A DNA stretch of 62,871 nt from a virus (lineage: Duplodnaviria; Caudoviricetes). A model generated the notes under the pieces. The model was not told the origin of the DNA and did no database searches. It worked only from the letters and a program-made list of their open reading frames with translations. Of this stretch, positions 2,823 through 62,871 are shown piece by piece. The translations under genes were made by a program, and so were the position numbers. The stretch is taken from positions 1-62,871 of IMG/VR virus record IMGVR_UViG_3300042381_000268; one strand, written 5' to 3'. Within the stretch, counting starts at the first letter, position 1; every line of letters begins with the position of its first letter.

Positions 2823-2824
2823 TT

Positions 2825-41528: not shown

Positions 41529-41589
41529 GTTATATTTAATTTGATTTAATTTTATAACAGTATTATTACGCAATTTTTGCGGTTTTTAG

Positions 41590-44384: not shown

Positions 44385-44386
44385 AA

Positions 44387-44677: not shown

Positions 44678-44689
44678 AATTTCTATTTT

Positions 44690-47605: not shown

Positions 47606-47611
47606 TACTGA

Positions 47612-48739
47612 TTATACTAGTCTTATTTTTACGGTGCCAGCAGTGTGATATAGCCCACCAACAGCAATGCCACCAATAGCCGCCGCTGCATCATTTGCAA
47701 AATTATTTGCTACCTGAGGCAGGTATACCGTTAAAGCCACCGTACCATCAGCGTCAGGAAACTCAATAGTCCTATTTGCTGCCAGGTTGAACGGAGGGAT
47801 CAAATCCATTTGGTAGCCGATCTCATTTAAGATATCATTTCTATAAAACCTTAAAGAGTCTCTACGTAATGCAATACCTTCATTAGAAATTGGGTTTTTA
47901 ATAGATACTATGGATCCGGTTAAAGTAAGCGTGTTAAGAGCTCCTGCTGTAGCAGTATTTCCTACCGCTAAGACTTGTTCAAGGTCTCGAGGTATATCAG
48001 AAAGGTAGGCTACTATCCCGTCTGCATCTTGGAATGAGACAGACCTAGATGCAGTAATAGTTGATGGTTTTCTAATTTGAAAAATAAGACCTGGACTAGC
48101 GTCTCTTAAAACTAAGGCGTCTTTTATTAAATATCCAATATCAAACCCAGTTGGGGAATTGAAATTAAATCTATTTTTATCGGAACTAATATAACCATAA
48201 CCTCCATTAAGTGAATCCCATAAACCCAAAACTCCAATACTAGCGTCAAGCTGAGTTATGTTACCTGAAACTAAAACATCCTCTAACGGAGGTATATCGC
48301 TTGTTAGAGCAATAATCCCGTCTGCGTCTTGAAAAGTAACTGTTCTATTAGCAGTAACGGCGGCTGGCTTCATGATACTAAGCTGATATTCATCTCCGAC
48401 ATTTGTTAAACTCAAAGTGTCTTGACTTAAATTACCATAATACTCACCAACATTATTATAGAAATTAAATCTATTTTTATTTCCTGTAATGTATGGGTAA
48501 CCAAGGCCTGACGGACCATGGCTATTGTATAAAAATATACCTCCCACCTTAGCATCAATCTGGGATACATTGTCATTATCTAAAACATCGTTAAGCGTTA
48601 CAAATCCTCGTGTAAAAGAAGCAAGGTCGCCTACGCTATAGTTCTTAACTACGCGAGAACCATTGTCCATTTCACTGCCTAAAACCCAACTGTCATTTGT
48701 TACTTCATCCGCCAACGGATAACTGTATATTAGTGCCAT
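47612..48739 (-). CDS. Tail fiber-like protein, paralogous to 44690-47605 (start MALIYSYP)
   Basis: Shared N-terminus (MAxIYxYPL..KNxSxxDL) and three FxDADGxxA repeats. Confidence 0.7.
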   Translation of the reverse strand: MALIYSYPLADEVTNDSWVLGSEMDNGSRVVKNYSVGDLASFTRGFVTLNDVLDNDNVSQIDAKVGGIFLYNSHGPSGLGYPYITGNKNRFNFYNNVGEYYGNLSQDTLSLTNVGDEYQLSIMKPAAVTANRTVTFQDADGIIALTSDIPPLEDVLVSGNITQLDASIGVLGLWDSLNGGYGYISSDKNRFNFNSPTGFDIGYLIKDALVLRDASPGLIFQIRKPSTITASRSVSFQDADGIVAYLSDIPRDLEQVLAVGNTATAGALNTLTLTGSIVSIKNPISNEGIALRRDSLRFYRNDILNEIGYQMDLIPPFNLAANRTIEFPDADGTVALTVYLPQVANNFANDAAAAIGGIAVGGLYHTAGTVKIRLV

Positions 48740-48743
48740 ACCT

Positions 48744-49010
48744 TTATTTTTTTTGTTTATTTTTATAAGAACCCACTTTCTCTTTAACTTTACCTTCTTT
48801 TTTTGTACCCTCACCATCATTACCCCTATTAGCTGCGACGGTTTTAAATTTCCTATCCTTGTGATCATAATCCTTACCGTTGTTTCCGGGGTGCTTACGA
48901 TGCATTCTTTGATTCTCTGCTTTTTTTGCTCTTCTATCATCGGTTTTAGCGTATCTTAAGTCTCTTTCCGCTTTTGCCTTAGCAGCTTTCGGAGATAATT
49001 TCTGTGCCAT
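48744..49010 (-). CDS. Small basic HNH-like protein
   Basis: GKDYDHKD...AANRG degenerate HNH motif; first gene of the leftward arm. Confidence 0.55.
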   Translation of the reverse strand: MAQKLSPKAAKAKAERDLRYAKTDDRRAKKAENQRMHRKHPGNNGKDYDHKDRKFKTVAANRGNDGEGTKKEGKVKEKVGSYKNKQKK

Positions 49011-49076
49011 ATTACTAAATTTAGTTATAGTATATACTATCACGTATAAATACCAATTCTTAAAATAAAAAAAATA

Positions 49077-49120
49077 GCGACATTAGCCTATTACTATTAT
49101 ATTTAACTACCTAACGTCAC
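49077..49120. repeat. Long-spacer inverted repeat, copy A
   Basis: GCGACATTAG-N24-CTAACGTCAC. Confidence 0.8.
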
Positions 49121-49267
49121 ACTACTAATGTATCATATTATACACATTATTAATTTTTTTGTATATAATAACGTACGTTTTAAAAAAATGTTATTACAAA
49201 TATAGAAGTAAGGGGTTATATACTATTTTCTAACAACAACTTTCAAAAGGAAAACGAATCTGTTTTG

Positions 49268-49518
49268 ACCCACCCCCCGGCTTGAAATGGAAGAGTCGTA
49301 AAACGTTTCGGCTTTTCGTACGGCGCGGCATAATGGTTCTAGCTATTATGTTTGACGATTGCATACATATGTGTCGATCCGATTGCATGTGTGTGCACTG
49401 GATAGTATGTTATACGATACGATACGATACGTGTGCATGTGTATGGTATGTTGTACGATACGATAGCAAGCGAAGCGCGAAGCGCGAAGCGTAGCGTATA
49501 GCATACGCGTATAGCACT
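49268..49518. repeat. Non-coding low-complexity region at the strand switch (candidate genome end)
   Basis: ACCCACCCCCCGG, tandem TACGA and tandem GCGAAGC repeats. Confidence 0.65.
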
Positions 49519-49574
49519 TACAGTACCGATACGACGTAGTTGTGATAATATATATGAATCTAAAATATATAACT

Positions 49575-49733
49575 ATGAACATTTCATTCGATCAAATCAT
49601 CATCAATGTAGTGAATAATAACTTCACACAAATTGTATTCATTAAAGACTGTATTATATTATTCGTTGAACCATTCGAATCAAAACACCACAACGAGTAT
49701 CTTAATCTAGATATCACTGAGTTCCAGTTCTAA
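49575..49733 (+). CDS. Early hypothetical protein
   Basis: ATG downstream of promoter copy 1. Confidence 0.6.
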   Translation: MNISFDQIIINVVNNNFTQIVFIKDCIILFVEPFESKHHNEYLNLDITEFQF

Positions 49734-49752
49734 TACTCAGTTAACTATATAA

Positions 49753-49772
49753 GGTCCCTACGGGGATCTATT
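49753..49772 (+). terminator. Hairpin/weak terminator
   Basis: GGTCCC-TACG-GGGATC (UNCG-type loop) after the first early gene. Confidence 0.45.
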
Positions 49773-49914
49773 TGCTCCGTGCGACGGAATGGACAGGCGG
49801 AGCTGTGCGAGTTAGCGAGCACGCGAAGCGTATAGCATTTACAGTCTGAATACGATGATAAAATGATAATATATATGAATAAAGAAATTAATATAAATAA
49901 ATAAAATAACAATT

Positions 49915-50106
49915 ATGAAATTAACAATTTTAAAAATCAATCAAAACTTTCGATCAATTATTTGTAGTCAATTAATTAATTCAAATAAATTAGAATTTGA
50001 ATTCAAAATGATAAATAATAAATTAATAATAAATCAAATTGACTTTGAAATTGTTGATAAATTATTAACTAGAAATTATCATAACTATAAAGTCTTACAG
50101 TCTTAA
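49915..50106 (+). CDS. Early hypothetical protein
   Basis: Follows promoter copy 2. Confidence 0.6.
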   Translation: MKLTILKINQNFRSIICSQLINSNKLEFEFKMINNKLIINQIDFEIVDKLLTRNYHNYKVLQS

Positions 50107-50165
50107 TACGATCAGAAAATGATAATATATATGAATCTAAATAATAACAATTAAATATAATAATT

Positions 50166-50504
50166 ATGAACAATCAAGAACAAACTTTGTCAAGTAAAGA
50201 ATTAATCGCTAATGCAATCGCTAAGCTAAGTCCAGAAGAATTAGCAGCAATCTATCCACCGATCGAACGAGCTAACTTTGTAGTCAGAAAATCTTGGCTA
50301 GGTCGTAATCAAGTTATAACATTCGTTAATAATAAAAATCAACGAATAACTTACAATCACGATGAAGTATTAAAAGTTATGCTACCGAAGCTATCTATAA
50401 TGCCATGTTGGATCAAGCGCGAATATTGGTCACAATCTACTGATATGCCAGCTAATGTTAGAAACTTAGCCAAAGTTGAAAATCTAGAGTCTACTGAAAA
50501 GTAG
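50166..50504 (+). CDS. Early hypothetical protein
   Basis: Follows promoter copy 3. Confidence 0.75.
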   Translation: MNNQEQTLSSKELIANAIAKLSPEELAAIYPPIERANFVVRKSWLGRNQVITFVNNKNQRITYNHDEVLKVMLPKLSIMPCWIKREYWSQSTDMPANVRNLAKVENLESTEK

Positions 50505-50612
50505 GCTTTGGATCAACCTCAACACGCTGTAATCGTTGGCCACGTTGCTATACACTTACAAGACGAATACGACGATCAAATGATAATATATATGAATATA
50601 AAAATTAATAAT

Positions 50613-50864
50613 ATGACTTTACTAAACAAACAAATCACTTCAAAACAAGACATTAAAAACTTCATTGACTACTTAGCAGCTAATAACATGCTCTATCACT
50701 TTGAAGATGATGCAAAAGACATATACAGCTGCAGTTCAGGCTTTGAAGAGCGAGCATTCACAGATGAGCAATGTGTATTACTAGATCAAAGAACTACTGA
50801 AATGCTCAGAGTTGATCATGAATACTCTTTTGATTATGCACTAGAAACTTATTTAAACGATTAA
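50613..50864 (+). CDS. Early hypothetical protein (start MTLLNK)
   Basis: Follows promoter copy 4. Confidence 0.7.
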   Translation: MTLLNKQITSKQDIKNFIDYLAANNMLYHFEDDAKDIYSCSSGFEERAFTDEQCVLLDQRTTEMLRVDHEYSFDYALETYLND

Positions 50865-50881
50865 ACAATATGAAAAACAGT

Positions 50882-50925
50882 GCGACGTTAGCCTACTATT
50901 TACTTAATTAAGTACCTAATGTCAC
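50882..50925. repeat. Long-spacer inverted repeat, copy B
   Basis: GCGACGTTAG-N24-CTAATGTCAC. Confidence 0.8.
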
Positions 50926-51006
50926 ACTTTTAACGGTCCCTTCGGTCCCTTAAGTAATTGCTATACACTTACGGGACGAATACGACCATATTTTGATAAT
51001 ATTAAT

Positions 51007-51054
51007 GGGCCTGGTGTTGAAATATCATCGGAAGAGTAGACTCCGCCCTACTCC
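51007..51054 (+). ncRNA. Candidate small structured RNA
   Basis: Directly after promoter copy 5 with no sizeable ORF; CTGGTG/CATCGG and GAGTAG/CTACTC stems. Confidence 0.35.
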
Positions 51055-51150
51055 TGCTATACATGCTATGCACCGCATTCGCTTGATCAACTCCTACAAG
51101 ACGAACACGAACTAAAATTGATAATATATATGAATCTAAAAACAAGTAAT

Positions 51151-51450
51151 ATGAAGTATATAATAAAACAAAGTACAGAGATTGTGTGGTGTGACCAAGA
51201 TGATAGGTATATTATGGTTATGAAAGAAGAAAATGAGATAATTGGGTTAAATTTCATGCAAGGTGACGAATTCGAGTACTTCGTTGAACACTATATGGAC
51301 ATTGACCATGAATTAACCGACTTCTATAACTCCATTAAGTACTATTTAAGTGGCGATTCCGAGTTAGATCGAGTAAATCAAGCAATTTGGGCACATTTTG
51401 ACTATAAAAATCGTAAATTTGAGCGAAAAACAGGGTTTATGCGTTCATAA
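51151..51450 (+). CDS. Early hypothetical protein
   Basis: Follows promoter copy 6. Confidence 0.7.
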   Translation: MKYIIKQSTEIVWCDQDDRYIMVMKEENEIIGLNFMQGDEFEYFVEHYMDIDHELTDFYNSIKYYLSGDSELDRVNQAIWAHFDYKNRKFERKTGFMRS

Positions 51451-51694
51451 CGAGGGGGTTATACCATTCTAACTATTTGATTGAGTAAACAAAGTTCAAC
51501 CTCTTACAATAACAATACGATTATAAATTGATAATATAAATGTAAGTATAACAAACAAATATAACTAATTATGAGAAGATTTAACAATGCATTTAGAGTG
51601 GTAGTATTAAAAGTGAAATTTGAGCTCTTAGAGGGCGCTAGAAACGCTGCATATGTGCTAAGTAAATAATGTTTAACTAATAAAAAATAGAATT

Positions 51695-51805
51695 ATGAGT
51701 ATGGTAAGTGAATGTTGTGGCGCGGCCACTGATATGACCGAGTACGGTTTATGTCCTGATTGTTATGAGCATTGCGAATTTTATGATGATGAAGAAGATG
51801 AATAG
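51695..51805 (+). CDS. 36-aa zinc-ribbon acidic peptide (not in ORF track)
   Basis: SECCGA...LCPDCYEHC. Confidence 0.65.
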   Translation: MSMVSECCGAATDMTEYGLCPDCYEHCEFYDDEEDE

Positions 51806-51903
51806 CGATGATATAGTAATGTTGATATGTATCTTTTACGGTACATTCGCAGTGGGAGCAGTGTTTTTAAAATGGTTTAATGATAAATATAATTGAGTAA
51901 ATT

Positions 51904-52074
51904 ATGGCAAAGTATAAAGTAAGAATTACAGAGTATTTAAGTAGAATTGTAGAGGTAGAAGTTAGCGATGAAGAATACGCTATCAAAGTAGTTAAAGATC
52001 TGTATTTCGATGGAGAAATAGTATTAGACTATGGCGATTTTGATGAAGTAGAATTTAATAATGTAGAAGAATGA
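51904..52074 (+). CDS. DpnD/PcfM-like small protein (not in ORF track)
   Basis: KYKVRITEYLSRIVEVE....AI..VKDLY..GEIVLD..DF..VEF. Confidence 0.65.
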   Translation: MAKYKVRITEYLSRIVEVEVSDEEYAIKVVKDLYFDGEIVLDYGDFDEVEFNNVEE

Positions 52075-52289
52075 GTTATCCAATAATAGAGTATTGTAAC
52101 CCGTGTTTTCCTGACGTACCACATTTTAAATGTTCTATAGACGGTACTACCCGACACACCACTGATCTTGATGAACTTAAAGAGTGGCGAAAAGAAATGG
52201 TTGACACCACTGATTACCGTGCTCAAGCTAAAATAATTACTAATATGGCAATGGAATCATTTGTCAAAGACCTAAAAAATAAAGATTAA
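52071..52289 (+). CDS. Hypothetical protein
   Basis: ATGA overlap with the upstream ORF. Confidence 0.65.
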   Translation: MSYPIIEYCNPCFPDVPHFKCSIDGTTRHTTDLDELKEWRKEMVDTTDYRAQAKIITNMAMESFVKDLKNKD

Positions 52290-52292
52290 CAA

Positions 52293-52364
52293 GGTTAATA
52301 TGCGAAATGGGATTACGCGCCATACTTTGATATGGAGATAGGGGTTCGACTCCCCTGTTAACCA
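52293..52364 (+). tRNA. Atypical tRNA-Gln(TTG)-like element
   Basis: Acceptor GGTTAAT/GTTAACC; T-arm AGGGG-TTCGACT-CCCCT; anticodon stem CCATA/TATGG with only a 6-nt loop CTTTGA. Confidence 0.65.
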
Positions 52365-52429
52365 CAAGATGTTTACAATATAAACACGACAGCGAAATGA
52401 TAATATAAATGTAACAAATAATATATACT

Positions 52430-52612
52430 ATGAAAAATTCAATTAAGTTCTTAAAAAACAATTTTATTAAAGTTAATGGCGTGCTATACACACCATATTT
52501 CGTCGGCGATCTACCGCAAAGCTTCGGCTTCATCTTCGATGCTGAAAATGAAAAAGACGGTATATCCAAATTCTTTAACTTCAAAGGTCTAACCTATATA
52601 ATCAAACCGTAA
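52430..52612 (+). CDS. Hypothetical protein
   Basis: Follows promoter copy 8. Confidence 0.7.
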   Translation: MKNSIKFLKNNFIKVNGVLYTPYFVGDLPQSFGFIFDAENEKDGISKFFNFKGLTYIIKP

Positions 52613-52613
52613 T

Positions 52614-52862
52614 ATGATAGTAGTAGCGAGTAATATGAAAGAAGCGTTGCAATACTTAAAAGAAAAGAAAGCGCGCAATTTAGCAAACCACCGATCAATT
52701 GTAGCAGTCAGTGGTTACTGTAAGCCCTTAAACATTAAGGAATACAAACAAGTGAAAACTGGTATGAAAGGTGCTGCTAATAGAAAAGCCAAGACCTTTA
52801 GCGTAACTAGATTATGGAACCACAATAACCTAACATTAAAACAAATTAAAGAACAATACTAA
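52614..52862 (+). CDS. Hypothetical basic protein
   Basis: Operon packing. Confidence 0.65.
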   Translation: MIVVASNMKEALQYLKEKKARNLANHRSIVAVSGYCKPLNIKEYKQVKTGMKGAANRKAKTFSVTRLWNHNNLTLKQIKEQY

Positions 52863-52863
52863 T

Positions 52864-53151
52864 ATGAAAAGACTAATAACTAAAAGCGAAGATACAGTAG
52901 CGTTATGCGATATTGAAGATACTTCAATTGTTGGTATACAATGGGAACGTGGCGATAAAGCTATGATAATTAGCTCACCGGATGGATTTTGCGCACTAAG
53001 TAATAGGCATAAACCTAACCTATGGAATGTATGGTATGCTCCGTCTACAAGAGAATATCTAGAGAGAGCACTAAGACAAGGTAACAATACAAAATCAAAA
53101 GCCTTTGTTTTCGATACAACATACGAGTTATACGAATGGATGAGTAATTAA
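52864..53151 (+). CDS. Hypothetical protein
   Basis: Operon packing. Confidence 0.7.
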   Translation: MKRLITKSEDTVALCDIEDTSIVGIQWERGDKAMIISSPDGFCALSNRHKPNLWNVWYAPSTREYLERALRQGNNTKSKAFVFDTTYELYEWMSN

Positions 53152-53164
53152 TAAATATATAGAT

Positions 53165-53356
53165 ATGAAAAAATTTAACGGATTTGAAGCGTGGTTAATT
53201 CTTGAAGGTTTAAAACTTGCAAGTGAAGATATGAAACAAGGTATTGAGCAAACTATTGCTAATGGTAAAATGCCTCTAATGACCACCGGCTATGTGGATA
53301 TGGTTATAAAAGATGCAGTTGAAAAAGTTAACAGTCTAACCATAAAACAAAAGTAA
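53165..53356 (+). CDS. Hypothetical protein
   Basis: Operon packing. Confidence 0.7.
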   Translation: MKKFNGFEAWLILEGLKLASEDMKQGIEQTIANGKMPLMTTGYVDMVIKDAVEKVNSLTIKQK

Positions 53357-53357
53357 T

Positions 53358-53624
53358 ATGAGTACAACCTTTGGCGTATTAAAAGAATATGTTGACCCTA
53401 TTAAAATAGTCGACGAAGATGGCGATCTATTATGGTACATAAGTGAAAATGCATTTGAACCTATATTCTTTAGAAGTATGAGACAAAGCAGATGGTTAAA
53501 TTGGGCAGGTGCATATATGAATGACGATACTATAGTATATGCATTAGACAATACCCGACAAGGTATCTATACCATAAAAGATTGTAAAGAATTATTAAAG
53601 AAAGAACAGGAAGCACAACTATAA
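53358..53624 (+). CDS. Hypothetical protein
   Basis: Operon packing. Confidence 0.7.
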   Translation: MSTTFGVLKEYVDPIKIVDEDGDLLWYISENAFEPIFFRSMRQSRWLNWAGAYMNDDTIVYALDNTRQGIYTIKDCKELLKKEQEAQL

Positions 53625-53710
53625 AGTAATTGATCTTAGCGTGCTATACACTTTTACAGTCTAAATACGACAACAAATTGATAATATAATTGAATCTAAA
53701 AACAAATAAA

Positions 53711-53953
53711 ATGAGCGATACAACAACTTTCGACCTAGTTAAAGAATTAGCAATGCTATCTAAAACTGTAAATTTCAGCGATTTCTATAATATAGATATT
53801 CGCCCTAATAAACCTGAGATCAGATTACAAGGCACATTTACCTATGCTACAGCCAAAACGGCTAAATCCTTAGGTATAAAACTAGAATTTGATAATGAAA
53901 CAACTATGCTTCGTGGTAATGACGGCATTATTTATATAACTTTAACTGAATAA
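53711..53953 (+). CDS. Hypothetical protein (start MSDTT)
   Basis: Follows promoter copy 9. Confidence 0.7.
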   Translation: MSDTTTFDLVKELAMLSKTVNFSDFYNIDIRPNKPEIRLQGTFTYATAKTAKSLGIKLEFDNETTMLRGNDGIIYITLTE

Positions 53954-53955
53954 CT

Positions 53956-54159
53956 ATGGATATAAAAATAAACTTAGTAGAGATCGCCTCTGAATTAGCG
54001 AATGATAGAGTATATGAGCAGATGACCTCTGAATATATGGGTGAAGCTGACATATATAAAACAAATAGTAAACTTATAGAATATACAGAATACGGACAAA
54101 AAGTATTTGATGGCTGGTATGATTACTATTATAACTTTATTAACAAATATAAAGATTAA
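53956..54159 (+). CDS. Hypothetical protein
   Basis: Operon packing. Confidence 0.7.
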   Translation: MDIKINLVEIASELANDRVYEQMTSEYMGEADIYKTNSKLIEYTEYGQKVFDGWYDYYYNFINKYKD

Positions 54160-54160
54160 T

Positions 54161-54346
54161 ATGAAAGATGAACAATTAGCATTTCAAGAAGCAAAAGCAT
54201 TTGAAGTATGGATGCGTGATACTATAAAGTCTGTACATTATGCGGACAATAAGTCAATGACAGAAGCATACGATAGAGTATTTAATAACAGTTTAGAAAT
54301 TATAGTATATGAGAACATTAAGCGACAAAGAAGCGAACCTAGTTAG
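54161..54346 (+). CDS. Hypothetical protein (start MKDEQ)
   Basis: Operon packing. Confidence 0.6.
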   Translation: MKDEQLAFQEAKAFEVWMRDTIKSVHYADNKSMTEAYDRVFNNSLEIIVYENIKRQRSEPS

Positions 54347-54530
54347 ACTAGCAGTATATGAGGGAGTTGACACCATTGTTGACAGGTTATGGACAGATTT
54401 TAAAATTTGTCAAACACAATTAACACCATTACAATCAGATAGATTTTGCGAATTCGAAGATCTGCTATACACATTTCTTTGCGAGCTCGCCGAAGATCAC
54501 GGTGTCTTACAGACTGAATACGATTCATAA
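54309..54530 (+). CDS. Hypothetical protein
   Basis: Operon packing. Confidence 0.6.
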   Translation: MRTLSDKEANLVRLAVYEGVDTIVDRLWTDFKICQTQLTPLQSDRFCEFEDLLYTFLCELAEDHGVLQTEYDS

Positions 54531-54563
54531 TTGATAATATAAATGTAACTAATAAAATATAAT

Positions 54564-54848
54564 ATGATAAATTTAAAGAAAGAATTTAGTACTGTGCAAT
54601 TCAGAAAATTCGTAGGCGATGAGGGTAAGTTATTTAGTGTAACTTTTAAGAAAAAAGACGGCACATTGCGTACTATGACTGCAAGATTAGGTGTCCGTAA
54701 GTATTTAACCGGCGGTGGTGCAAAATTTGATGCTGAACCAAGAGGTATGGTAAGAGTCTTTTCAATGAGAGATAAAGGTTATCGTACCGTAACCGCTGAA
54801 AAGATTACCAGAATAAAAGCTTATGGTAGAGTATTGGATCTACAATAA
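54564..54848 (+). CDS. SH3/WYL-like small phage protein
   Basis: FSVTFKKKDGTLRTM...KGYRTV motif. Confidence 0.7.
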   Translation: MINLKKEFSTVQFRKFVGDEGKLFSVTFKKKDGTLRTMTARLGVRKYLTGGGAKFDAEPRGMVRVFSMRDKGYRTVTAEKITRIKAYGRVLDLQ

Positions 54849-54899
54849 TAACACGATGCAAAAATGATAATATAAATGTAACTAATAAAATTTAATCTA

Positions 54900-55298
54900 A
54901 TGGAAAAAATAAATGAATTATTCGAACTTCAAGTAGCTATTGTTATTGATGCGTTCCCAAGCGTTTATACTAAAGATGATGTAATATCATTGCTAACCAC
55001 ATTGCGAACCCAAGTATTAATTGAAGTATCAGAATTAAACCCTATTGAAAGTATAACTGAAGAGCAATTCCAAGAATTTGCAAGTGATGTTCAAAATAAT
55101 CTTGAGCGATCTTTATGCAATGGCCAAATTGAAGTATATGATACGGGCTCTGCAGAATTTAGCATTGGTTACGATAATAAAATTCAAATTGAAAACATTG
55201 ACGTACTTACAGACAATATAACCGACGAGTTACACGATATATTACTTGATCAATTCCAAGTACATTTTAAAAAATTATTAACCAATAACCCTGAATAA
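54900..55298 (+). CDS. Acidic hypothetical protein
   Basis: Follows promoter copy 11. Confidence 0.75.
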   Translation: MEKINELFELQVAIVIDAFPSVYTKDDVISLLTTLRTQVLIEVSELNPIESITEEQFQEFASDVQNNLERSLCNGQIEVYDTGSAEFSIGYDNKIQIENIDVLTDNITDELHDILLDQFQVHFKKLLTNNPE

Positions 55299-55300
55299 AT

Positions 55301-55774
55301 ATGGCTAAAGCAAAAAAATTAAATTTAAAGACCGTACTAGACGAAATATTCCTTGAGGGCGGCGTAAGTTATAATGTAACTACTGGCGAAGTTAATCCTA
55401 AGTCTGGCTATATGGTTAGTATATTAGGGTTCGAAAAACAATATGACCTAGATACCATAAAAGCTAATGATCTTCGCGAGTATGTATTAGACAATGCTTA
55501 TGATCTATGGGGTGAGAATAGATTTGTAGGCGGCTGGATAAATACAGATACCAGCAAAGTTGTATTAGATGTTTCAGTAAACATTACGGATGTGACAAAT
55601 GCCTGTTATACCGGTATTATTAACCAACAAAAGTGTATATATGATTGTAGTAATAAACGTAATATATCTTTACCTTCACCTCAAACTGCAGGAACTGAAG
55701 TACAAAAGAAAGCGTATGCGAAAATGAAAGCAGAACAGTTAGCGTATTTATTAGAAACTACTGGTGTTGAGTAG
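55301..55774 (+). CDS. Hypothetical phage protein
   Basis: GYMVS..VGGW..VVLDVS..QKCIYD pattern. Confidence 0.75.
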   Translation: MAKAKKLNLKTVLDEIFLEGGVSYNVTTGEVNPKSGYMVSILGFEKQYDLDTIKANDLREYVLDNAYDLWGENRFVGGWINTDTSKVVLDVSVNITDVTNACYTGIINQQKCIYDCSNKRNISLPSPQTAGTEVQKKAYAKMKAEQLAYLLETTGVE

Positions 55775-55787
55775 TTATAGTGCTATA

Positions 55788-56126
55788 CACGGTTGTTCAC
55801 TAGAGTGCACGTATGTGGTGCCGTGTTATTTACCATTTGAGATGAACAACGCGCCTAAGTTAACGGGTAACAAAGCGGGCCGGCAACTCCGGGTAGCGAA
55901 TGGTTGAGCGTGGGAAACAGCACGTAATGCTGAATAAATTGTATGATCACTGGGAACTATAATCGCCACAAAACAGTTTAAATAGTCAATGTATGTGCTG
56001 CGTATCATTGAACTTACCTATATCATATTTTGTTGATTATTTCGGGGTTACGGAAACATTGTCCAATCAGTGCTGGTTGGTTGTAATCGAAACGCAAATA
56101 AAGTAGTAACCGGCTTGCGAGTCAAC
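55788..56126 (+). ncRNA. Candidate structured non-coding RNA
   Basis: Relatively GC-rich tract without a credible ORF and with several complementary segments, upstream of the tRNA-like elements. Confidence 0.45.
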
Positions 56127-56129
56127 TAA

Positions 56130-56201
56130 GAACTAAGTATGGTTTGCCATTAGCAGAACACAACCGACGGGTTAAGGGGTTCGATTCCCCTTTTAGTTCC
56201 A
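56130..56201 (+). ncRNA. tRNA-like element lacking a normal anticodon arm
   Basis: GAACTAAG/TTTAGTTC stem plus AGGGG-TTCGATT-CCCCT T-arm. Confidence 0.55.
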
Positions 56202-56205
56202 AATT

Positions 56206-56296
56206 GTCGAGATTGATGTAACTGGGAATGAATACCAGCTAGGGTAACACGGTGTAATACTACACTTCATAAGGGTTCGAATCCCTTATCTCGACC
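56206..56296 (+). ncRNA. tRNA-like element with expanded D-loop and truncated anticodon loop
   Basis: GTCGAGAT/ATCTCGAC stem; AAGGG-TTCGAAT-CCCTT T-arm; GTGTA-ATAC-TACAC arm. Confidence 0.6.
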
Positions 56297-56365
56297 TAAA
56301 TTAAGTCCTACAGTCTGGACACGATCAAATAATGATAATATAAATGTAACAAAAACAAATTAACT

Positions 56366-56839
56366 ATGAATATATTTTATTTATCTGAAGACCCTAATGA
56401 AGCGGCTAAGTATATGTATAACAAGCATGTAGTAAAAATGATCCTTGAGTCTGCGCAATTATTATGTACCGCTCATATCATTTCTGACGGCGAAGCTGCT
56501 GATGTTCCTTACAAAGCAACGCATAAAAATCATCCGTCTGCAATATGGGCACGTGAGTCTGTATCTAACTATATATGGTTGTATGATCATATGATTGCAT
56601 TGGGTAATGAGTATACACGTCGTTATGGCAAAAAACATTTAACAATATTAAAGTGTAGCGGCGCATTATGTAAAGCTCCAAACAATGTTACTAAAGTCGA
56701 TCTAACGCCTATGCCACAATGTATGCCTGATCAATACAAAGTTCCCGGCAATAGTGTAGAAGCATACTGGAATTATTATGAAGCAGAAAAAGTAAGCGTA
56801 AAAAACTCAAACGAAAGTATAATAACTAGACCTAAATAA
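56366..56839 (+). CDS. Pyrimidine-dimer DNA glycosylase (DenV-like) family protein
   Basis: MNIFYL...KHVVKMILESAQLL...HKNHPSAIW...EYTRRYGKKH. Confidence 0.8.
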   Translation: MNIFYLSEDPNEAAKYMYNKHVVKMILESAQLLCTAHIISDGEAADVPYKATHKNHPSAIWARESVSNYIWLYDHMIALGNEYTRRYGKKHLTILKCSGALCKAPNNVTKVDLTPMPQCMPDQYKVPGNSVEAYWNYYEAEKVSVKNSNESIITRPK

Positions 56840-56840
56840 C

Positions 56841-57422
56841 ATGAAACAATTAACTGATATTCAATTAGCGGAAATAAATAGTAATCTTGATAATTACTTT
56901 TCCTTAGCAACTGACGGCGATATTGATAACGGTATCGCATGGTATAAGCAAGCACATTATATCTGCAAAGATCTATCTAAACAGTATAATGTACCTATTG
57001 CTGTTGTTGCAAGTATTGTTAGCGCATTGTCGCCACGTAATAAATGGAATCAAAACATTAAAGATACCATAACCGTGCTAAATGCTATACACAATAATCT
57101 TTCGCCAGACGATATCAAAGTTTGCACATTCCACAAAAATAAGTACAAAGCATTTCTATTAGGTCAAAGAAAAGCTCAAATCACTGAACAAAGTTTGAAA
57201 ACATTTAACTTTGTGCGCAATATTGCTGATCTTGATGAAAATTCAATTACTATTGACGTGTGGCATTTGCGTGCTTGCTTTGGTAAAACAATAAAGAATG
57301 TGCCTACACCTACTGTTTATGCACAAATCAAAGAATTAACAATTAACAAAGCAAAGGCTAAAGGCTTAAAAGGTTTTGAGTATCAAGCAATTATATGGAA
57401 TTCGGTAAAAAACAATTTTTAA
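56841..57422 (+). CDS. Putative DNA glycosylase-like phage protein
   Basis: WY..AH..ALSPRNKW..N..K.FNF..NI..ITIDVWH.R..QAIIW, with a HhH-GPD-like C-terminus. Confidence 0.55.
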   Translation: MKQLTDIQLAEINSNLDNYFSLATDGDIDNGIAWYKQAHYICKDLSKQYNVPIAVVASIVSALSPRNKWNQNIKDTITVLNAIHNNLSPDDIKVCTFHKNKYKAFLLGQRKAQITEQSLKTFNFVRNIADLDENSITIDVWHLRACFGKTIKNVPTPTVYAQIKELTINKAKAKGLKGFEYQAIIWNSVKNNF

Positions 57423-57423
57423 T

Positions 57424-57621
57424 ATGGACAAAGAAATCAAAGAAGCAGCACAAGATAAAATCTACGCAATATACTTTAATCTAATGCGTGAAAGTTTACA
57501 ACTAGATAAGTACTGGAAAGTTGATCCAGATAGAGCAATTGAATTAGAAAAATCACACGATAAAGAAGTGGCAGTGTATTCTTATATATTAGGTTTAATA
57601 GAAAAAGATAATAAATTATGA
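57424..57621 (+). CDS. Hypothetical protein
   Basis: Operon packing. Confidence 0.65.
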   Translation: MDKEIKEAAQDKIYAIYFNLMRESLQLDKYWKVDPDRAIELEKSHDKEVAVYSYILGLIEKDNKL

Positions 57622-57818
57622 CAGCAGTAGAATGGTTAGAAGAGTGTTTAACAGAGCAATATCCAAACGGTAAATTTGTTTGGAATACACGAGCAGATAT
57701 AGAAGTTTTATTTAAACAAGCTAAAATAATGGAAAAGCAACAGATTGAAACCGCATATAATAAAGGAGTGCCTTTTAAATATGGAAAAGAATATTATGAA
57801 GAAACATTTAAAAAATAA
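57618..57818 (+). CDS. Small phage protein (TAVEWL...EKQQI family)
   Basis: Motif recurrent in flavobacterial-type phages. Confidence 0.7.
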   Translation: MTAVEWLEECLTEQYPNGKFVWNTRADIEVLFKQAKIMEKQQIETAYNKGVPFKYGKEYYEETFKK

Positions 57819-57821
57819 ATT

Positions 57822-58025
57822 ATGGAAAGAACTAAAGACTTTGTAGATCAAATAATGCAATTTGAATCTGGTATGCTTAATGATAAAGAAATAATAGAAC
57901 TGTTTTCAGATATGGTAAAAACTGATGTAGCATGGTCATTACAAGGTCATTATGGTAGAGCAGCATCCGCTCTTATAGAAGGTGGTTGGTTAGATAAAGA
58001 AGGTAATATATTAAAAAACTTATAA
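57822..58025 (+). CDS. Small phage protein
   Basis: E.G.L..AWSLQGHYGRAA..LI..G motif. Confidence 0.7.
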   Translation: MERTKDFVDQIMQFESGMLNDKEIIELFSDMVKTDVAWSLQGHYGRAASALIEGGWLDKEGNILKNL

Positions 58026-58029
58026 TAAC

Positions 58030-58572
58030 ATGACAACATATAAAAATAGATACAATGATGTATTTACATTCACTAAAGATGACAACAATGATATTTTATG
58101 GGAGGGTAACTTTCAATATTCTAGATTTGGTATGCCTAATGATTATACTAAAGCCTTTAATGCATTTGTTGCTGATGGAGGTAAGTTTAGTTTTAATGAA
58201 TTTAAGAAAGCCGTGCATGAATGGGATGATGAAATTAATGATTATTCTTATCCTAAATATGTAAGAATGGTTGAATCATTATCTAATGAGATTGATATGG
58301 TAGACCCAAGTGGCGGCCCTTATATTACTAGTGGCATGTCATTAGACAGTTTCGGATTTAAAGGTTATGTAGTTAAAGACTTTAAAAAAATTGATACCGG
58401 TTATAAAATCGTTACAGAAAAATGCGGCGGTTGCAATAAACCTGGTGCTATACACAAAATGTCATGCCCTACCAAAAAATTTGCTGTTTTTATTGCTAAT
58501 GAAATAATAGAAGCATACTATGATCAAATGGATAAAGAGGTTCATCAAAATAGAGGTAATTTAAACAAATAA
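58030..58572 (+). CDS. Hypothetical protein
   Basis: MVDPSGGPYI motif; C-terminal CxxC..H..C. Confidence 0.7.
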   Translation: MTTYKNRYNDVFTFTKDDNNDILWEGNFQYSRFGMPNDYTKAFNAFVADGGKFSFNEFKKAVHEWDDEINDYSYPKYVRMVESLSNEIDMVDPSGGPYITSGMSLDSFGFKGYVVKDFKKIDTGYKIVTEKCGGCNKPGAIHKMSCPTKKFAVFIANEIIEAYYDQMDKEVHQNRGNLNK

Positions 58573-58574
58573 TT

Positions 58575-58817
58575 ATGAAACAAGAAACACTTGAAGAAGT
58601 TGCTGAAAGATTATACCCAAGACAAAAACCTAATTCTTATTATGGTAATATAGAATTATTAGAACAAGAAGCGTTTGAACAAGGTGCTAAATGGCAACAA
58701 GAAAGAAGTTATAGTGAGGAGGAAGTGATAGCATTTGGAGAGTTTATATTTAAACATACTTTATTAGCACATGCCAAAGGAGTTAAAAATTTATTTGAAC
58801 AATTTAAAAACAAATAA
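58575..58817 (+). CDS. Small phage protein (ETLEE...GAKWQQER family)
   Basis: Recurrent motif; operon packing. Confidence 0.7.
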   Translation: MKQETLEEVAERLYPRQKPNSYYGNIELLEQEAFEQGAKWQQERSYSEEEVIAFGEFIFKHTLLAHAKGVKNLFEQFKNK

Positions 58818-58874
58818 TACTTACAATCAAAACACGAATAACAATTGATAATATTAATATAAAAACAAATTAAT

Positions 58875-59177
58875 ATGAGTGATGAAGAAATCGAAAAACT
58901 TGCAGAATTAATATTCCAAAAGTTATTACAAAAAGAAAAAGAATATATTGACGGTATGGAATTACCTATTACCTGGGTGGCAGATAATACTACTGGCGAC
59001 TGGTATAAAGTTTCTTTCTCCGGTCCTGGATCTAGTAAAGATCTATTAATGCAGCGATTAGTAGCATTGAATATTGAAAAACAAGAGCTAATAGAAAAAG
59101 AAGATTATGAGGAGTTAATTAAATTACAAGAAAGAATAGATGGAATAAAAGAACAATTAAAAAAATATAAGGACTAG
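58875..59177 (+). CDS. Hypothetical protein with UVR-like C-terminal coiled coil
   Basis: LIEKEDYEELIKLQERI. Confidence 0.65.
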   Translation: MSDEEIEKLAELIFQKLLQKEKEYIDGMELPITWVADNTTGDWYKVSFSGPGSSKDLLMQRLVALNIEKQELIEKEDYEELIKLQERIDGIKEQLKKYKD

Positions 59178-59188
59178 CGTACAATAAT

Positions 59189-59233
59189 GCGACGTTAGTT
59201 AATTAATATATAAAAGTAATAAGCTAATGTCAC
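59189..59233. repeat. Long-spacer inverted repeat, copy C, overlapping the ATG at 59227
   Basis: GCGACGTTAG-N25-CTAATGTCAC. Confidence 0.8.
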
Positions 59234-59847
59234 ACGATCGTAATCTAGAATTTCTAAATAAAAGAAAAGTGATATATAGAAGAGGACCAATTAATGATAA
59301 ACCTTCTGAAGAATTTGAATGGGGTTATTATTATGAACAAGGCACACACGAGTGTTATGAACTATTCAGAAGCAAAGCTAAAATACCAACATATAAGTCA
59401 TTAAAATGGCATTTGTATGTGTTATGGTATCTTAATCCTAATATGGACCAGAATGAGTTTGAAACAACTGTGAGGCATGTATGTGATAGAAAGAATGGGT
59501 TTGTAACTTTCAATGTTAGTGAACAATTACTACAGAATATGATGTATGAAGTTTCATTAAAAGATCTTGAAGAACCTCCTAATAACAAGCAACGTAAAAT
59601 TATATTCAAAGACAGTTGCCAATTAACATTAACCGAAAAGTTATCTATTGTAGGTAAGATAATTGGTAAAACTAAACGGATAAACGAATCTGACATTTAC
59701 GATGCAATGCTATACATTCACGATCTTAATCAAAAAATAACAATCAACAAATTAGCAGAACATTTTGGGTGCACAACAAGAACAATACATCGCAATATGA
59801 GTAATGAGTTAAAAAAAGAAAAAGAATTACTAAATCAAAGTATATGA
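59227..59847 (+). CDS. DNA-binding protein with C-terminal HTH (regulator or replication initiator)
   Basis: KITINKLAEHFGCTTRTIHRNM. Confidence 0.75.
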   Translation: MSHDRNLEFLNKRKVIYRRGPINDKPSEEFEWGYYYEQGTHECYELFRSKAKIPTYKSLKWHLYVLWYLNPNMDQNEFETTVRHVCDRKNGFVTFNVSEQLLQNMMYEVSLKDLEEPPNNKQRKIIFKDSCQLTLTEKLSIVGKIIGKTKRINESDIYDAMLYIHDLNQKITINKLAEHFGCTTRTIHRNMSNELKKEKELLNQSI

Positions 59848-60044
59848 CACTAAAAGAAAAGTTTAGACCACACGCAAAATATTGGGATTGTTATAATGAT
59901 GAACCATTGAAATATGACCACGAAAATAAATGTGTAAAAATAGCAGATGAATTTGCTATTGAATTTGCAGAGTGGTTATTTAATATTGATAAAGAATTAT
60001 TAAAAAAACAATTAAATCATTTTAAACAAGAAAAAAGATTATGA
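59844..60044 (+). CDS. Small paralogous protein
   Basis: IADEFAIEFAEWL motif. Confidence 0.7.
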   Translation: MTLKEKFRPHAKYWDCYNDEPLKYDHENKCVKIADEFAIEFAEWLFNIDKELLKKQLNHFKQEKRL

Positions 60045-60226
60045 CACTAAAAGAACAATTTATAGATGCATTTAAGTCTGGTAAAAGATTTGACATTCAA
60101 AATGCAGAAGTAATAGCAGATGAATTTGCTATTGGATTTGCAGATTGGCTTATTAAAAGAGAAACAAAATATTTTGAATCACTTAAAGAACTATTAGAAA
60201 TCTATAAAAAAGAACAAGGATTATGA
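60041..60226 (+). CDS. Small paralogous protein
   Basis: IADEFAIGFADWL and ELLEIYKKEQGL. Confidence 0.7.
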   Translation: MTLKEQFIDAFKSGKRFDIQNAEVIADEFAIGFADWLIKRETKYFESLKELLEIYKKEQGL

Positions 60227-60501
60227 AACAAGAAGACAATAATATGATTACTACTTGGCTTAAAAATAATAGTGATCCACAAATTGAAATAAAAGTATTA
60301 AATGAAGCTATTGATAAATTAATAGAACAATTACAAATGGCTTATTTACAAGCAGACGAATCCGCTATTGGATTTTTACAATGGGCAAATGAAAATTATG
60401 ACTATTATCATGGCGATGGTGAATATCATAACAGTTCTAAAAATAAATGGTACAAAGTAGAAGAGTTATTAGAAATCTATAAAAAAGAACAAGGATTATG
60501 A
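60223..60501 (+). CDS. Small paralogous protein
   Basis: ADESAIGFLQWA and ELLEIYKKEQGL. Confidence 0.7.
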   Translation: MKQEDNNMITTWLKNNSDPQIEIKVLNEAIDKLIEQLQMAYLQADESAIGFLQWANENYDYYHGDGEYHNSSKNKWYKVEELLEIYKKEQGL

Positions 60502-61262
60502 AAAGTTATAACATACCAAATTACATAAGGTACAAGGAAGATATAAAACAAGTTAATAAGGATAATAACTCTGATAATTTTCATTTATATTCTAGAAATA
60601 ATCTTATTACACGTTTTCTTCCATTAGTAGAGAATATTGCTAAAAAGTTTTCAACTACTACAGAAGCGTGTGGCATATTAGATATTACAGATCTTATTCA
60701 ATGTGGATCAATTGGCCTTATACAAGCAGTTGATAAAATAGAATGGGATACTATTAAAGAAAGCGATCATAAAGAAAGTACATTAAAATCTTTTCTATCA
60801 AAAAGAATTAAAGGCTCTATTAGACGCGCTATTGATATTAATAGAGGTTCAATTAAAATTCCGGAGCATAAGTTAAATGAAATACGTAAGGACAATAGTA
60901 AAGATCATAGATTAGTTGCAATGTTTTTTAATTCCATATTTTTAAGCATTGATGAACAAATTAATGATGATGACGATGGTAATATGTTATATCAAATTCC
61001 GGATCAATCCGAAGTTTACAATATAAATTTAATGAATCTTTATTTAACTAGTTTACTTAAAAAGCATTTAGATAATCGTGAGTTTGAAGTATTAAGATTA
61101 AGTTATGGATTAGATTGTGATAAACATTCTGCTAATGAAATTGCAAGCAAATTAGGCATTGAAGGAGCAACAGCTTATGTTAAAATTTCAGAGATAAAAA
61201 AGCAAGCAATTCAAAAGTTAATTGACAATGTAGATTCCTCACAAGTCATTGATTACCTATAA
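60498..61262 (+). CDS. Phage sigma-70 family RNA polymerase sigma factor
   Basis: Region 2 PLVENIAKKF..DLIQCGSIGLIQAVDK; region 4 LDNREFEVLRLSYGL..SANEIASKLG. Confidence 0.88.
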   Translation: MKSYNIPNYIRYKEDIKQVNKDNNSDNFHLYSRNNLITRFLPLVENIAKKFSTTTEACGILDITDLIQCGSIGLIQAVDKIEWDTIKESDHKESTLKSFLSKRIKGSIRRAIDINRGSIKIPEHKLNEIRKDNSKDHRLVAMFFNSIFLSIDEQINDDDDGNMLYQIPDQSEVYNINLMNLYLTSLLKKHLDNREFEVLRLSYGLDCDKHSANEIASKLGIEGATAYVKISEIKKQAIQKLIDNVDSSQVIDYL

Positions 61263-61311
61263 GTTAAACTTAAAATTAGTCCCAAAAATATACTAAATAT
61301 GGGACAAAACA

Positions 61312-61321
61312 CGTAATTATA
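61312..61321 (+). promoter_or_regulatory. Class-2 promoter-like motif CGTAATTATA, preceded by a GTCCCA/TGGGAC hairpin (61279-61305)
   Basis: Similar motif on the minus strand at 18845-54, 27619-28, 38087-96, 41561-70 and 49035-44. Confidence 0.6.
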
Positions 61322-61355
61322 ATAATATATAAACTAAACCAATTAAATCAAATAT

Positions 61356-62654: not shown

Positions 62655-62871
62655 TGGCAAGTATTATTAAAGCAAGTATCAATTTAAATGAAATTCCTAA
62701 AAACAAGATTATAGATGGCAAGAAAGGAAAATACCTTCCCATAACTATAACAATTAACGATGAAGTAGACCAGTTTGGTAACCAAGGACCAATACAAGTT
62801 GAACAATCAAAAGAAGAAAGAGAATCAAAAGCAGCAAAAGTATATCTTGGTAACGTAAAAGTTGTATGGAC
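62654..62871 (+). CDS. Probable ssDNA-binding protein (3'-truncated)
   Basis: MASIIKASINL..GKKGKYL...DQFGN...SKEERE...YLGN; follows ERF and exonuclease. Confidence 0.6.
   Translation, partial: MASIIKASINLNEIPKNKIIDGKKGKYLPITITINDEVDQFGNQGPIQVEQSKEERESKAAKVYLGNVKVVW

Follow-up and report, generated by a model that had tools for sequence, protein, structure and literature searches.

The window analysed here, a stretch of 62,871 nt, is the whole genome (98% complete) of an uncultured, Bacteroidota-type phage (flavophage). Its early region, which we scanned from 48941 to 62871, holds small ORFs, a gene for a 206-aa protein with a C-terminal helix-turn-helix (HTH; 59227..59847, + strand), a gene for a 254-aa sigma-70-family factor with regions 2, 3.0 and 4.2 (60498..61262, +) and an ERF recombinase gene. 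The initial annotation had described thirteen tripartite + strand elements here, and this count was borne out: the motif TACA-N7-YACGA-N8-TGATAATAT, called class I below, gave 13 matches at up to three mismatches (12 exact and one with a single mismatch) between 49519 and 58854, all on the + strand. By chance 0.42 would be expected (sd 0.65, largest 3), and none of 100 shuffles reached 13. At up to one mismatch the window held 13 forward and 0 reverse matches, while the reversed pattern, used as a control, gave none in either direction. The box starts are 11 and 13 nt apart at all thirteen sites, and the word A(T/A)ATG(A/T)A, said to follow usually, is present downstream of ten (it is missing at 50970, 53655 and 58822).

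The sites are densest near the strand switch, as had been proposed, with seven of the thirteen in the first 2 kb past it. Sites 1 to 4 (49519..49551, 49840..49872, 50096..50128 and 50557..50589) precede ORFs starting at 49575, 49915, 50166 and 50613; sites 6 and 7 (51095..51127 and 51505..51537) precede ORFs at 51151 and 51571; and sites 8 to 12 (52374..52406, 53655..53687, 54508..54540, 54841..54873 and 56309..56341) precede ORFs at 52430, 53711, 54564, 54900 and 56366. All of these are exact, as is site 13 (58822..58854), which heads the gene run 58875-61262: an ORF at 58875, then the HTH gene and, at the end, the sigma gene, confirming that the last element lies ahead of the HTH/sigma genes. 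Site 5 (50970..51002) carries the one mismatch (TACG) and has the lowest PWM score (21.9); an 86-nt stretch follows it, and then the next class I site. Site 11 overlaps the last 7 nt of the preceding ORF. A tRNA-like call at 52293-52365 lies just before site 8. Small ORFs stand directly downstream of the sites, at about one site per 1–2 genes. Counting the T of TACA as position 1, the gap between position 40 and the ATG of the next ORF of 30 aa or more measures 17 nt at 6/13 sites and 14–20 nt at 9/13; to the ORF start it is 14–36 nt at twelve sites, with 121 nt free of any ORF at 50970.

Class I signals are common to hundreds of related phages. The exact pattern occurs in at least 120 IMG/VR stretches, and each of 32 near-complete genomes picked for having a motif hit carries 1–14 copies, strand-pure in 31. 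When loci were instead picked by the phage sigma alone, ignoring the motif, 52 of 56 had at least one class I site upstream of sigma and 45 had at least three, with 321 forward hits against 2 reverse. Leaders are similar elsewhere: of 240 unique copies in other phages, 215 are followed within 160 nt by an ORF of 30 aa or longer, and in 120 the leader measures 12–25 nt. The signal spans about 45 bases, longer than the pattern first described. In 258 unique instances from other phages, positions that the pattern leaves unfixed are 0.81–0.91 conserved (A10 0.86, A11 0.91, A34 0.88, T37 0.85, G38 0.84, A40 0.90, A44 0.85, A45 0.81). The boxes are fixed and the spacers free to vary; together with the conservation at unconstrained positions, this argues for selection on the boxes. 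A survey of 185,579 species genomes found class I in only 18 stretches, all of them MAG contigs and at least five carrying homologues of this phage's genes. Near absence from these genomes indicates that class I is not a host promoter class. The earlier description of the elements as phage-specific and promoter-like agrees with all of this: they lie between genes on a single strand, a short and nearly constant way ahead of start codons, and are conserved in hundreds of relatives. On such sequence features, the thirteen elements are almost certainly the early promoters of the phage.

At positions 28-33 all thirteen sites carry TAATAT, a -10-like hexamer with the A at position 2 and T at position 6 of an E. 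coli-type sigma-70 -10, and a conserved A lies 7 nt downstream. In place of a -35 element stand TACA and YACGA, one helical turn apart and 21 and 9 nt from G26. Read as TG-n-TAATAT (A at -11, T at -7), TGATAATAT resembles an extended -10 (TGnTATAAT); that class, however, lacks the two invariant upstream boxes. G26 does not change from one lineage to another, whereas position 25 may be T, G, A or C, so that the T of the extended -10 is not conserved beyond the lineage of the window phage. The upstream boxes had been called unlike E. coli TTGACA and Bacteroidota TTTG, and indeed the elements match neither TTGACA-N17-TATAAT nor TTG-N17-22-TAnnTTTG. We rejected class I as an E. coli -35/-10 promoter: there is no TTGACA at 16–18 bp, positions 5-10 are variable, and yTTACA as a -35 would demand a 21–23 bp spacer. 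A generic E. coli-type promoter scan of the region returned 87 sites against 81.5 expected.

A Bacteroidota sigma-A (-33/-7) promoter was also rejected. According to PMC2483708 and PMC9723704, the primary sigma of the host phylum usually uses TAnnTTTG; the former states that Flavobacteria sigma-A promoters require this element and that foreign promoters mostly work poorly there. The nearest -7 in class I, TATAWATG (31-38), departs from it by 1–2 mismatches in TTT, and its TG is gone in several related genomes. Sense-strand TTG-N17-22-TAnnTTTG had 0 matches in 48941-62871. What the two do share is an AT-rich leader without a Shine-Dalgarno sequence. "Tripartite" is also used, in bioRxiv 10.1101/2020.03.07.982082, for the middle promoters of Cellulophaga phage phi14:2; those sites are TTGnnn-N17-TAnnTTTG, whereas the early region of the window has no such sense-strand site. 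Sigma28/FliA-type promoters, given in PMC12784957 as -36 TCTAAAG -30 / -15 GCCGATAA -8, have in common with class I a GATAA core and often a CTAAA (at positions 7-11 of many sites), but the spacing between them is not N15: TACA lies 21 nt and CTAAA 13–14 nt from the GATAAT box, and class I was rejected as a sigma28/group-3 promoter.

Class I does not fit the N4 hairpin promoters either. These have a hairpin, whereas the 13 sites, folded as DNA and compared with shuffles, had a mean z of -0.01 and no conserved hairpin, and the spacers showed no conserved pairing. It does share with T7-class and N4 promoters a very high information content (58 bits over 49 nt for the window sites) and near-identical copies before many genes. 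T4 middle promoters keep the sigma-70 -10, with the -35 replaced by a MotA box near -30 and an AsiA-remodelled sigma; Pho boxes are activator-dependent tandem 11-bp repeats. Class I is like these activator-dependent promoters in joining a -10-like hexamer to a specific box centred near -27, in setting its boxes one helical turn apart and in placing a phage-specific consensus before many genes. Its boxes nevertheless differ in sequence from theirs, and it precedes the earliest genes, so any T4-middle-like activator would need to be present at time zero.

A second promoter-like motif, class II, TAAA-N15-GTAATTAT, occupies 61294..61320 (+), between the sigma gene, which it follows directly, and the ERF recombinase gene. 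It is bipartite, TAAA-N15 being followed by an 8-mer that starts with G, and among 93 unique loci, counted downstream of the sigma gene, 83 have it within 150 nt past the sigma stop codon. Its TAAA-N15-8-mer geometry is the same as that of the sigma28/FliA promoter in PMC12784957, though the 8-mer sequences differ. The profile of the phage sigma matches primary SigA/RpoD and FliA chains in PDB. Classes I and II have a G-(n)-TAAT core in common. In 53 of 55 sigma-selected loci the closest class I site ahead of sigma is 0.9–7 kb away, and only one locus has a class II match separating the two. From these features we consider class II the likelier target of the phage sigma, which would make class I a pre-sigma tier.

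We are thus inclined to a reading in which the phage would rely on host RNA polymerase and class I would supply the promoters used before sigma, in a cascade of two tiers. TAATAT would be the -10 hexamer, G26 an invariant -14 G, T25 the -15 T of an extended -10 (in the lineage of the window phage only) and A40 the likely start site, followed by a short A-rich leader of about 14–20 nt; TACA (~-39 to -36) and AAYACGA (~-30 to -24) would flank the usual -35 position and give specificity. At infection onset class I would fire to express the small early genes and, last, the HTH-sigma pair, after which sigma would turn on class II promoters, the first of them right behind its own gene. The initial annotation had class I acting before any phage-made factor; gene order (class I before sigma in 53/55 loci, class II after it in 83/93) upholds this by logic only. 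Its suggestion that serial promoters might drive transcription-coupled DNA entry found no support: in three fetched records classed by IMG/VR as having terminal repeats (G001, G010 and G014) the cluster lies at least 10.9 kb from either end, evidence that is weak since the repeats may be assembly overlaps.

As to the reader of class I, the host holoenzyme may be helped by a time-zero protein, virion-borne or host, a possibility that we put forward tentatively; our sigma and polymerase searches of the virion protein identified no such factor. It is rather doubtful that the host holoenzyme reads class I alone, while the boxes also serve the 206-aa HTH protein as an operator or activator site, because the need of Flavobacteria sigma-A for TAnnTTTG, as stated in PMC2483708, speaks against unaided reading. 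The HTH protein has no informative relatives in PDB or Pfam.

Equally doubtful, judging from the loci compared, is that the phage sigma itself, with or without the adjacent HTH protein, reads class I. In that case the small ORFs would belong to a delayed-early or middle phase, and leaky host transcription would yield a little sigma and then positive feedback. The phage sigma retains the region 3.0 helix (IKIPEHK), region 3.0 of sigma-70 being the part that reads an extended -10, and the 58 bits of class I would suit a dedicated factor. Sigma and HTH protein each occur in 32/32 motif-bearing genomes, their genes abutting or overlapping in several of those fetched, and the motif in 52/56 sigma-selected loci likewise favours sigma as reader; in genome G010 the sigma ORF even has a class I site immediately in front of it. 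Close homologues of this sigma are missing from the cultured phages of the collection, and one close structural relative, MW202828.1, lacks motif, sigma and HTH protein alike. Yet joint presence in 32/32 and joint absence in MW202828.1 are expected whether the motif is read by sigma or drives sigma, so this comparison does not separate the two. Against sigma as reader, in 53/55 loci its gene comes last in the units that class I drives, with no other conserved promoter type upstream, so that each early promoter would await its own product. Moreover, the equally conserved class II, with canonical bipartite sigma geometry, lies behind the gene, and class I, with TACA and YACGA where they are, does not fit that geometry. 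No sigma residue tracks position 25 (best mutual information 0.84 of 1.70 bits), and the top columns fall outside regions 2.4 and 3.0. Given the shared core and CTAAA, one sigma could conceivably serve both classes.

That the early specificity factor travels in the virion seems unlikely to us, whether as an adaptor within the 3050-aa virion protein that would steer host polymerase to TACA-N7-YACGA-N9-GATAAT promoters or as a polymerase in that protein's C-terminal block B. If true, it would give a phage that lacks a recognisable virion polymerase a new route past the host promoter code, open from the first minute, and would apply to a very large uncultured phage clade. The virion sigma-like fragment of the initial annotation did not hold up: Pfam, NCBIfam and PDB profile searches with the stretch whose sequence resembles a sigma factor to the eye returned no sigma, hhalign against the phage's own sigma gave a probability of 0.3%, and six-frame searches with PF04542 and PF08281 matched only the sigma gene at 60498..61262. 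Covariation of motif and sigma-like domain, proposed as a check, also failed, the block being absent from 12/32 motif-bearing genomes. A virion-delivered RNA polymerase that would read class I without the host enzyme, as in N4, crAss-like and phiKZ-like phages, is in our estimate improbable. Block B is present in 32/32 motif-bearing genomes at 38–74% identity, the cultured elemo phage has, at the homologous position, a protein annotated as structural, and MW202828.1 combines an unrelated giant protein with a different early element, a 16-bp palindrome in 14 copies, mostly ~20–25 nt before ATG. The information content of class I is within the range of single-subunit polymerase promoters, and AATACGAC looks like part of the T7 promoter. 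On the other hand, Pfam, PHROGs, NCBIfam and PDB searches gave no polymerase in the giant protein, hhalign against N4 gp50 reached a probability of 1% or less, and no conserved DxDxD catalytic motif was found. Its homologues carry swapped modules (LPD14, Zeta-toxin/AAA_33 and DUF6934) typical of polyvalent cargo proteins, and class I has no hairpin tendency. The phage also has its own sigma gene, which implies use of the host core enzyme. No other ORF is both large enough and unassigned for a single-subunit RNA polymerase; the 971-aa and 442-aa proteins have tail-fibre-like repeats. A six-frame PF00940 search had no match in the window and matched no control genome either, which makes it uninformative.

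It is very improbable that the boxes are not promoters at all, being instead sites for a phage DNA-binding protein (operator, partition or replication) or recombination boundaries for cassette shuffling. TACA and YACGA do form a direct repeat with an 11-bp period, as tandem HTH or winged-helix sites show, and a further short word, GCTATAC, likewise clusters there in the early region. Strict strand polarity, the near-fixed distance to start codons, the AT-rich -10-like hexamer with its conserved purine 7 nt downstream and the rate of about one site per 1–2 genes all argue for promoters instead, and a regulator site and a promoter can coexist.

The initial annotation described thirteen early promoter-like elements of the form TACA-N7-YACGA-N8-TGATAATAT, and this tripartite motif (class I) proved to be real: 13 copies, 12 of them exact and the other with one mismatch, lie at 49519-58854, all on the plus strand. 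The chance expectation was 0.42, and 0 of 100 shuffles reached 13. No copy was found on the opposite strand of the window, and none of the reversed pattern. The motif is also longer than first described: the 13 sites align as yT-TACA-N5-AA-YACGA-N5-wwT-TGATAATAT-A-w-a-TG-w-AA and together carry 58 bits. Counting from the T of TACA as position 1, an ORF of at least 30 aa has its ATG 14–36 nt 3' of position 40 at 12 of the 13 sites, and the leader from position 40 to the ATG is exactly 17 nt at six of the 13. The site at 50970 is the mismatched and lowest-scoring one; after it come 86 nt with neither an ORF nor notable RNA structure (z -0.70), and then the next class I site.

The genome around these sites (rated 98% complete, G+C ~33%) consists of a long minus-strand block of late genes at 5272-48940 and of plus-strand genes, with many small ORFs, that start near 49.5 kb, reach the end of the record and resume at base 1. 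The late block encodes the large terminase (33580-35802), the portal (31162-33579), a 2183-aa virion structural protein, a GroEL homologue and a 3050-aa giant protein without a family match (5272-14424), all on the minus strand. Adjoining the strand switch are minus-strand genes for a 971-aa and a 442-aa protein (44690-48940), which have no family match and carry repeated, tail-fibre-like ...FPD(A/K)SGT(I/V)AL(L/T)SD(I/V)P... units. The plus strand encodes a 206-aa protein with a C-terminal helix-turn-helix (HTH; 59227-59847) and a 254-aa sigma-70-family factor (60498-61262; Sigma70_r2 of Pfam, 24.9 bits; TIGR02937, 55.4 bits against a cut-off of 42.9), together with an ERF recombinase, a PD-(D/E)XK exonuclease, thymidylate synthase, MazG and ribonucleotide reductase. 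In large-terminase comparison, MW202828.1, an uncultured podovirus, is the nearest relative (64.6% identity); cultured Flavobacterium, Cellulophaga, Tenacibaculum and Maribacter phages follow at below 60%, the elemo phages among the matches listed being at 44%.

Class I is found in many other phages. An exact-pattern scan of IMG/VR found it in at least 120 stretches, with 282 instances, 274 of them with full flanks and 258 unique. Among the unique instances, positions that the pattern leaves unfixed are conserved (A10 0.86, A11 0.91, A34 0.88, T37 0.85, G38 0.84, A40 0.90, A44 0.85 and A45 0.81) and the N5 and N8 spacers scarcely depart from background, which points to the boxes being kept by selection and not by recent shared ancestry. 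A set of 240 unique instances was filtered separately: 215 have an ORF of 30 aa or more within 160 nt, and 120 have a leader of 12–25 nt. Thirty-two near-complete genomes, chosen for having a class I match, carry 1–14 copies each (at most one mismatch), confined to a single strand in 31 of the 32; the control gave none. Selection on the motif was removed by gathering loci by the sigma protein alone. A position weight matrix was applied to the 56 such loci that extend 5 kb or more 5' of sigma: 52 had at least one class I match 5' of sigma and on its strand, and 45 had three or more (321 forward matches versus 2 reverse). Across lineages TACA and AAYACGA are nearly unchanged; the third box keeps G26 and TAAT, with T, G, A or C at position 25 and a tail of TAATAT, TAATAA or TTATAA depending on the lineage. 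The cultured relative vB_FspP_elemoA_15-9B has no multi-copy early motif, and in phi14:2 TGATAATAT is only scattered, mostly in coding places. No description of class I was found in the accessible literature, which does not include the promoter table of phi14:2 or the motif logos of F. psychrophilum.

By comparison of motifs, class I appears to fit no known promoter code, the host's included. Its TAATAT is a good -10 hexamer, as in E. coli-type promoters, but the motif varies at the -35 position, and a spacer of 21–23 bp would be required for yTTACA; the initial annotation was thus right to set it apart from E. coli promoters. Generic sigma-70 sites in 48800-62871 gave no signal (87 versus 81.5 expected). 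Hairpin promoters are a trait of N4, and this type was rejected for class I, whose sites have no hairpin tendency (mean z -0.01). The proposed distinction from the Bacteroidota primary-sigma promoter (TTG ... TAnnTTTG; accessible text of PMC2483708 and PMC9723704) also stood, the early region containing no sense-strand TTG-N17-22-TAnnTTTG. In the accessible portion of bioRxiv 10.1101/2020.03.07.982082, Cellulophaga phage phi14:2 is said to have tripartite middle promoters that are read by the host; those inspected have the form TTGnnn-N17-TAnnTTTG. A promoter class of the host itself was considered and rejected: across one genome each of 185,579 species, class I occurs in just 18 stretches, all of them MAG contigs, at least 5 of which hold homologues of the window's phage genes. 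The MAG labels were likewise set aside as a guide to the host. Twelve of the 18 are Bacteroidota, yet three phage contigs lie in implausibly labelled MAGs; as these contigs carry the phage sigma and HTH genes within Rickettsiaceae or Clostridium MAGs, the binning is unreliable.

A second, bipartite motif (class II) lies directly 3' of the sigma stop codon in 83 of 93 unique loci, where it reads tgTAAAt-N10-A-yry-GTAATTATA-ttaATA. Its core is TAAA-N15-GTAATTAT, i.e. TAAA-N15-GTAAT(T/A)AT. The window has exact copies at 61294-61320 (plus strand, before the ERF gene) and, on the minus strand, at 41562-41588 (before GroEL), 38088-38114, 42010-42036 and 34253-34279 (within the terminase gene). This geometry is that of sigma28 promoters, given in the accessible part of PMC12784957 as -36 TCTAAAG -30 and -15 GCCGATAA -8. 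The sigma profile scores similarly against the chains of primary SigA/RpoD and of FliA, and class II is likely the target of the phage sigma. In 53 of 55 sigma-selected loci the nearest 5' class I site lies 0.9–7 kb (median 2.7 kb) before sigma, and a class II match falls between the two in only one locus of this set. In several of the genomes fetched, the genes for HTH and sigma adjoin or overlap each other. The simplest reading of this layout is a cascade: class I would drive the early genes, the HTH-sigma pair coming last, and sigma would then open class II, first at the 3' end of its own gene. Such a widespread environmental clade would combine two sharply defined promoter classes with its own sigma factor. 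We call the family large on the basis of at least 8000 sigma matches (E 1e-10 or better) and 3388 representatives matching block B, a conserved part of the giant protein. The cultured-phage collection contains no isolate of this clade.

A concrete, testable question is what recognises a 58-bit promoter at a time when no phage protein has yet been made. Presence and absence cannot name the reader, since sigma, HTH and block B each co-occur with class I in 32 of 32 genomes, and MW202828.1 lacks the motif, sigma, HTH and the giant protein, block B included. We lean slightly towards class I being read, ahead of sigma, by the host polymerase, either alone or assisted by a helper present at time zero. 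The T7 A1 promoter is transcribed in vitro by Cellulophaga polymerase (accessible portion of bioRxiv 10.1101/2020.03.07.982082). According to the part of PMC2483708 that is accessible, foreign promoters generally work poorly in Flavobacteria, making it doubtful that unaided host sigma-A reads class I; if unaided host polymerase were the reader, Bacteroidota promoter grammar would be wider than known. Reading by the phage sigma, with which class I invariably co-occurs in these genomes, is less probable: class I sites precede its gene, and a covariation search of sigma residues against the lineage-specific base at position 25 gave no standout column. A role other than that of a promoter seems very improbable for an element found on one strand a short leader before ORFs.

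Reading by a polymerase hidden in the virion is possible but distinctly unlikely. To our knowledge, the start of transcription in Bacteroidota phages is known in very few cases; in the crAss-like phage phi14:2 a virion polymerase reportedly performs it. The initial annotation had pointed to a virion sigma-like fragment, and residues ~1315-1400 of the giant protein do resemble sigma region 2 by eye. This proposal failed on every comparison made: a Pfam scan of the fragment and NCBIfam gave no sigma match, a PDB profile search (30-sequence alignment) returned no sigma, and profile-profile comparison with the phage's own sigma gave a probability of 0.3%. Apart from two sharply conserved blocks, A (~1270-1650) and B (~2100-3000), the giant protein is variable in sequence. 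Twelve of the 32 class I genomes lack block A, which therefore cannot be required. It contains an invariant D-x-A-G-R that recalls the T/DxxGR of T7-like polymerases, in a block dispensable in those 12 genomes. The giant protein has no match in PHROGs, Pfam, PDB or NCBIfam and no similarity to N4 gp50; a search of all window ORFs for DxDGD or DxDxD yielded merely two non-conserved acidic stretches, both in this protein, and a six-frame search of the window with PF00940 gave no match, nor did its control. A block B profile run against 1.84 billion representatives gave the 3388 matches (50% identity level); all of the 150 listed belong to the same giant-protein family and offer no functional lead. 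Polyvalent ejected cargo proteins are a recognised class, and the giant protein looks like one, judging by the modules swapped among its homologues (LPD14, Zeta-toxin/AAA_33 and DUF6934), a conserved HExxH (residues 1078-1082, ~nt 11179-11193) and a HAD-like DxDxT (residues 2131-2135, ~nt 8020-8034).

The suggestion that serial promoters drive transcription-coupled DNA entry found no support: in the three fetched records that IMG/VR classes as having terminal repeats, neither end is closer than 10.9 kb to the class I cluster, though the repeats may be assembly overlaps. For Flavobacteria genetics, the compact promoter-plus-leader cassettes and the sigma/promoter pair would be ready-made parts.

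Several further features were observed. The non-coding stretch 49230-49518, which lies at the strand switch and at the cumulative GC-skew minimum, is relatively GC-rich and rich in repeats (GATAC in tandem, copies of GCGAAGC, TGTGTGCA words, the palindrome GCGTATAGCATACGC), and is a candidate replication origin or packaging region. In the divergent region before the first class I site, a generic scan found overlapping E. coli-type sites, TACACA-N17-TATAAT at 49141-49169 (plus) and TATACA-N17-TATAAT at 49165-49137 (minus), each with 10/12 matches; these may have arisen by chance in AT-rich DNA or may provide a start for leaky transcription. Of the 14 occurrences in the window of the word GCTATAC (mostly tGCTATACAC), 13 fall within 49496-59715, several copies lying 4–45 nt 5' of class I sites and others within ORFs; the word is likewise concentrated in the early regions of five related IMG/VR genomes (G014, G001, G003, G010 and G027). 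ARAGORN called a tRNA-like gene with an abnormal anticodon loop at 52293-52365 (plus), just 5' of the class I site at 52374; Rfam gave no tRNA at gathering score for this call, and no family reached its gathering score in the whole window. Intrinsic terminators in 48800-62871 show no excess (4 versus 5.4 expected). Another related genome, G032 (129,537 bases), has two copies each of sigma and HTH and block B matches at two separate regions, and may be two related genomes joined in assembly. Finally, the early region of MW202828.1, whose own giant protein has no informative Pfam or PDB match, carries 14 copies of the perfect palindrome GTGTCGTTAACGACAC at 43748-55157. Most, not all, precede early ORFs, mostly ~20–25 nt before the ATG, in what looks like a swapped early-promoter system.
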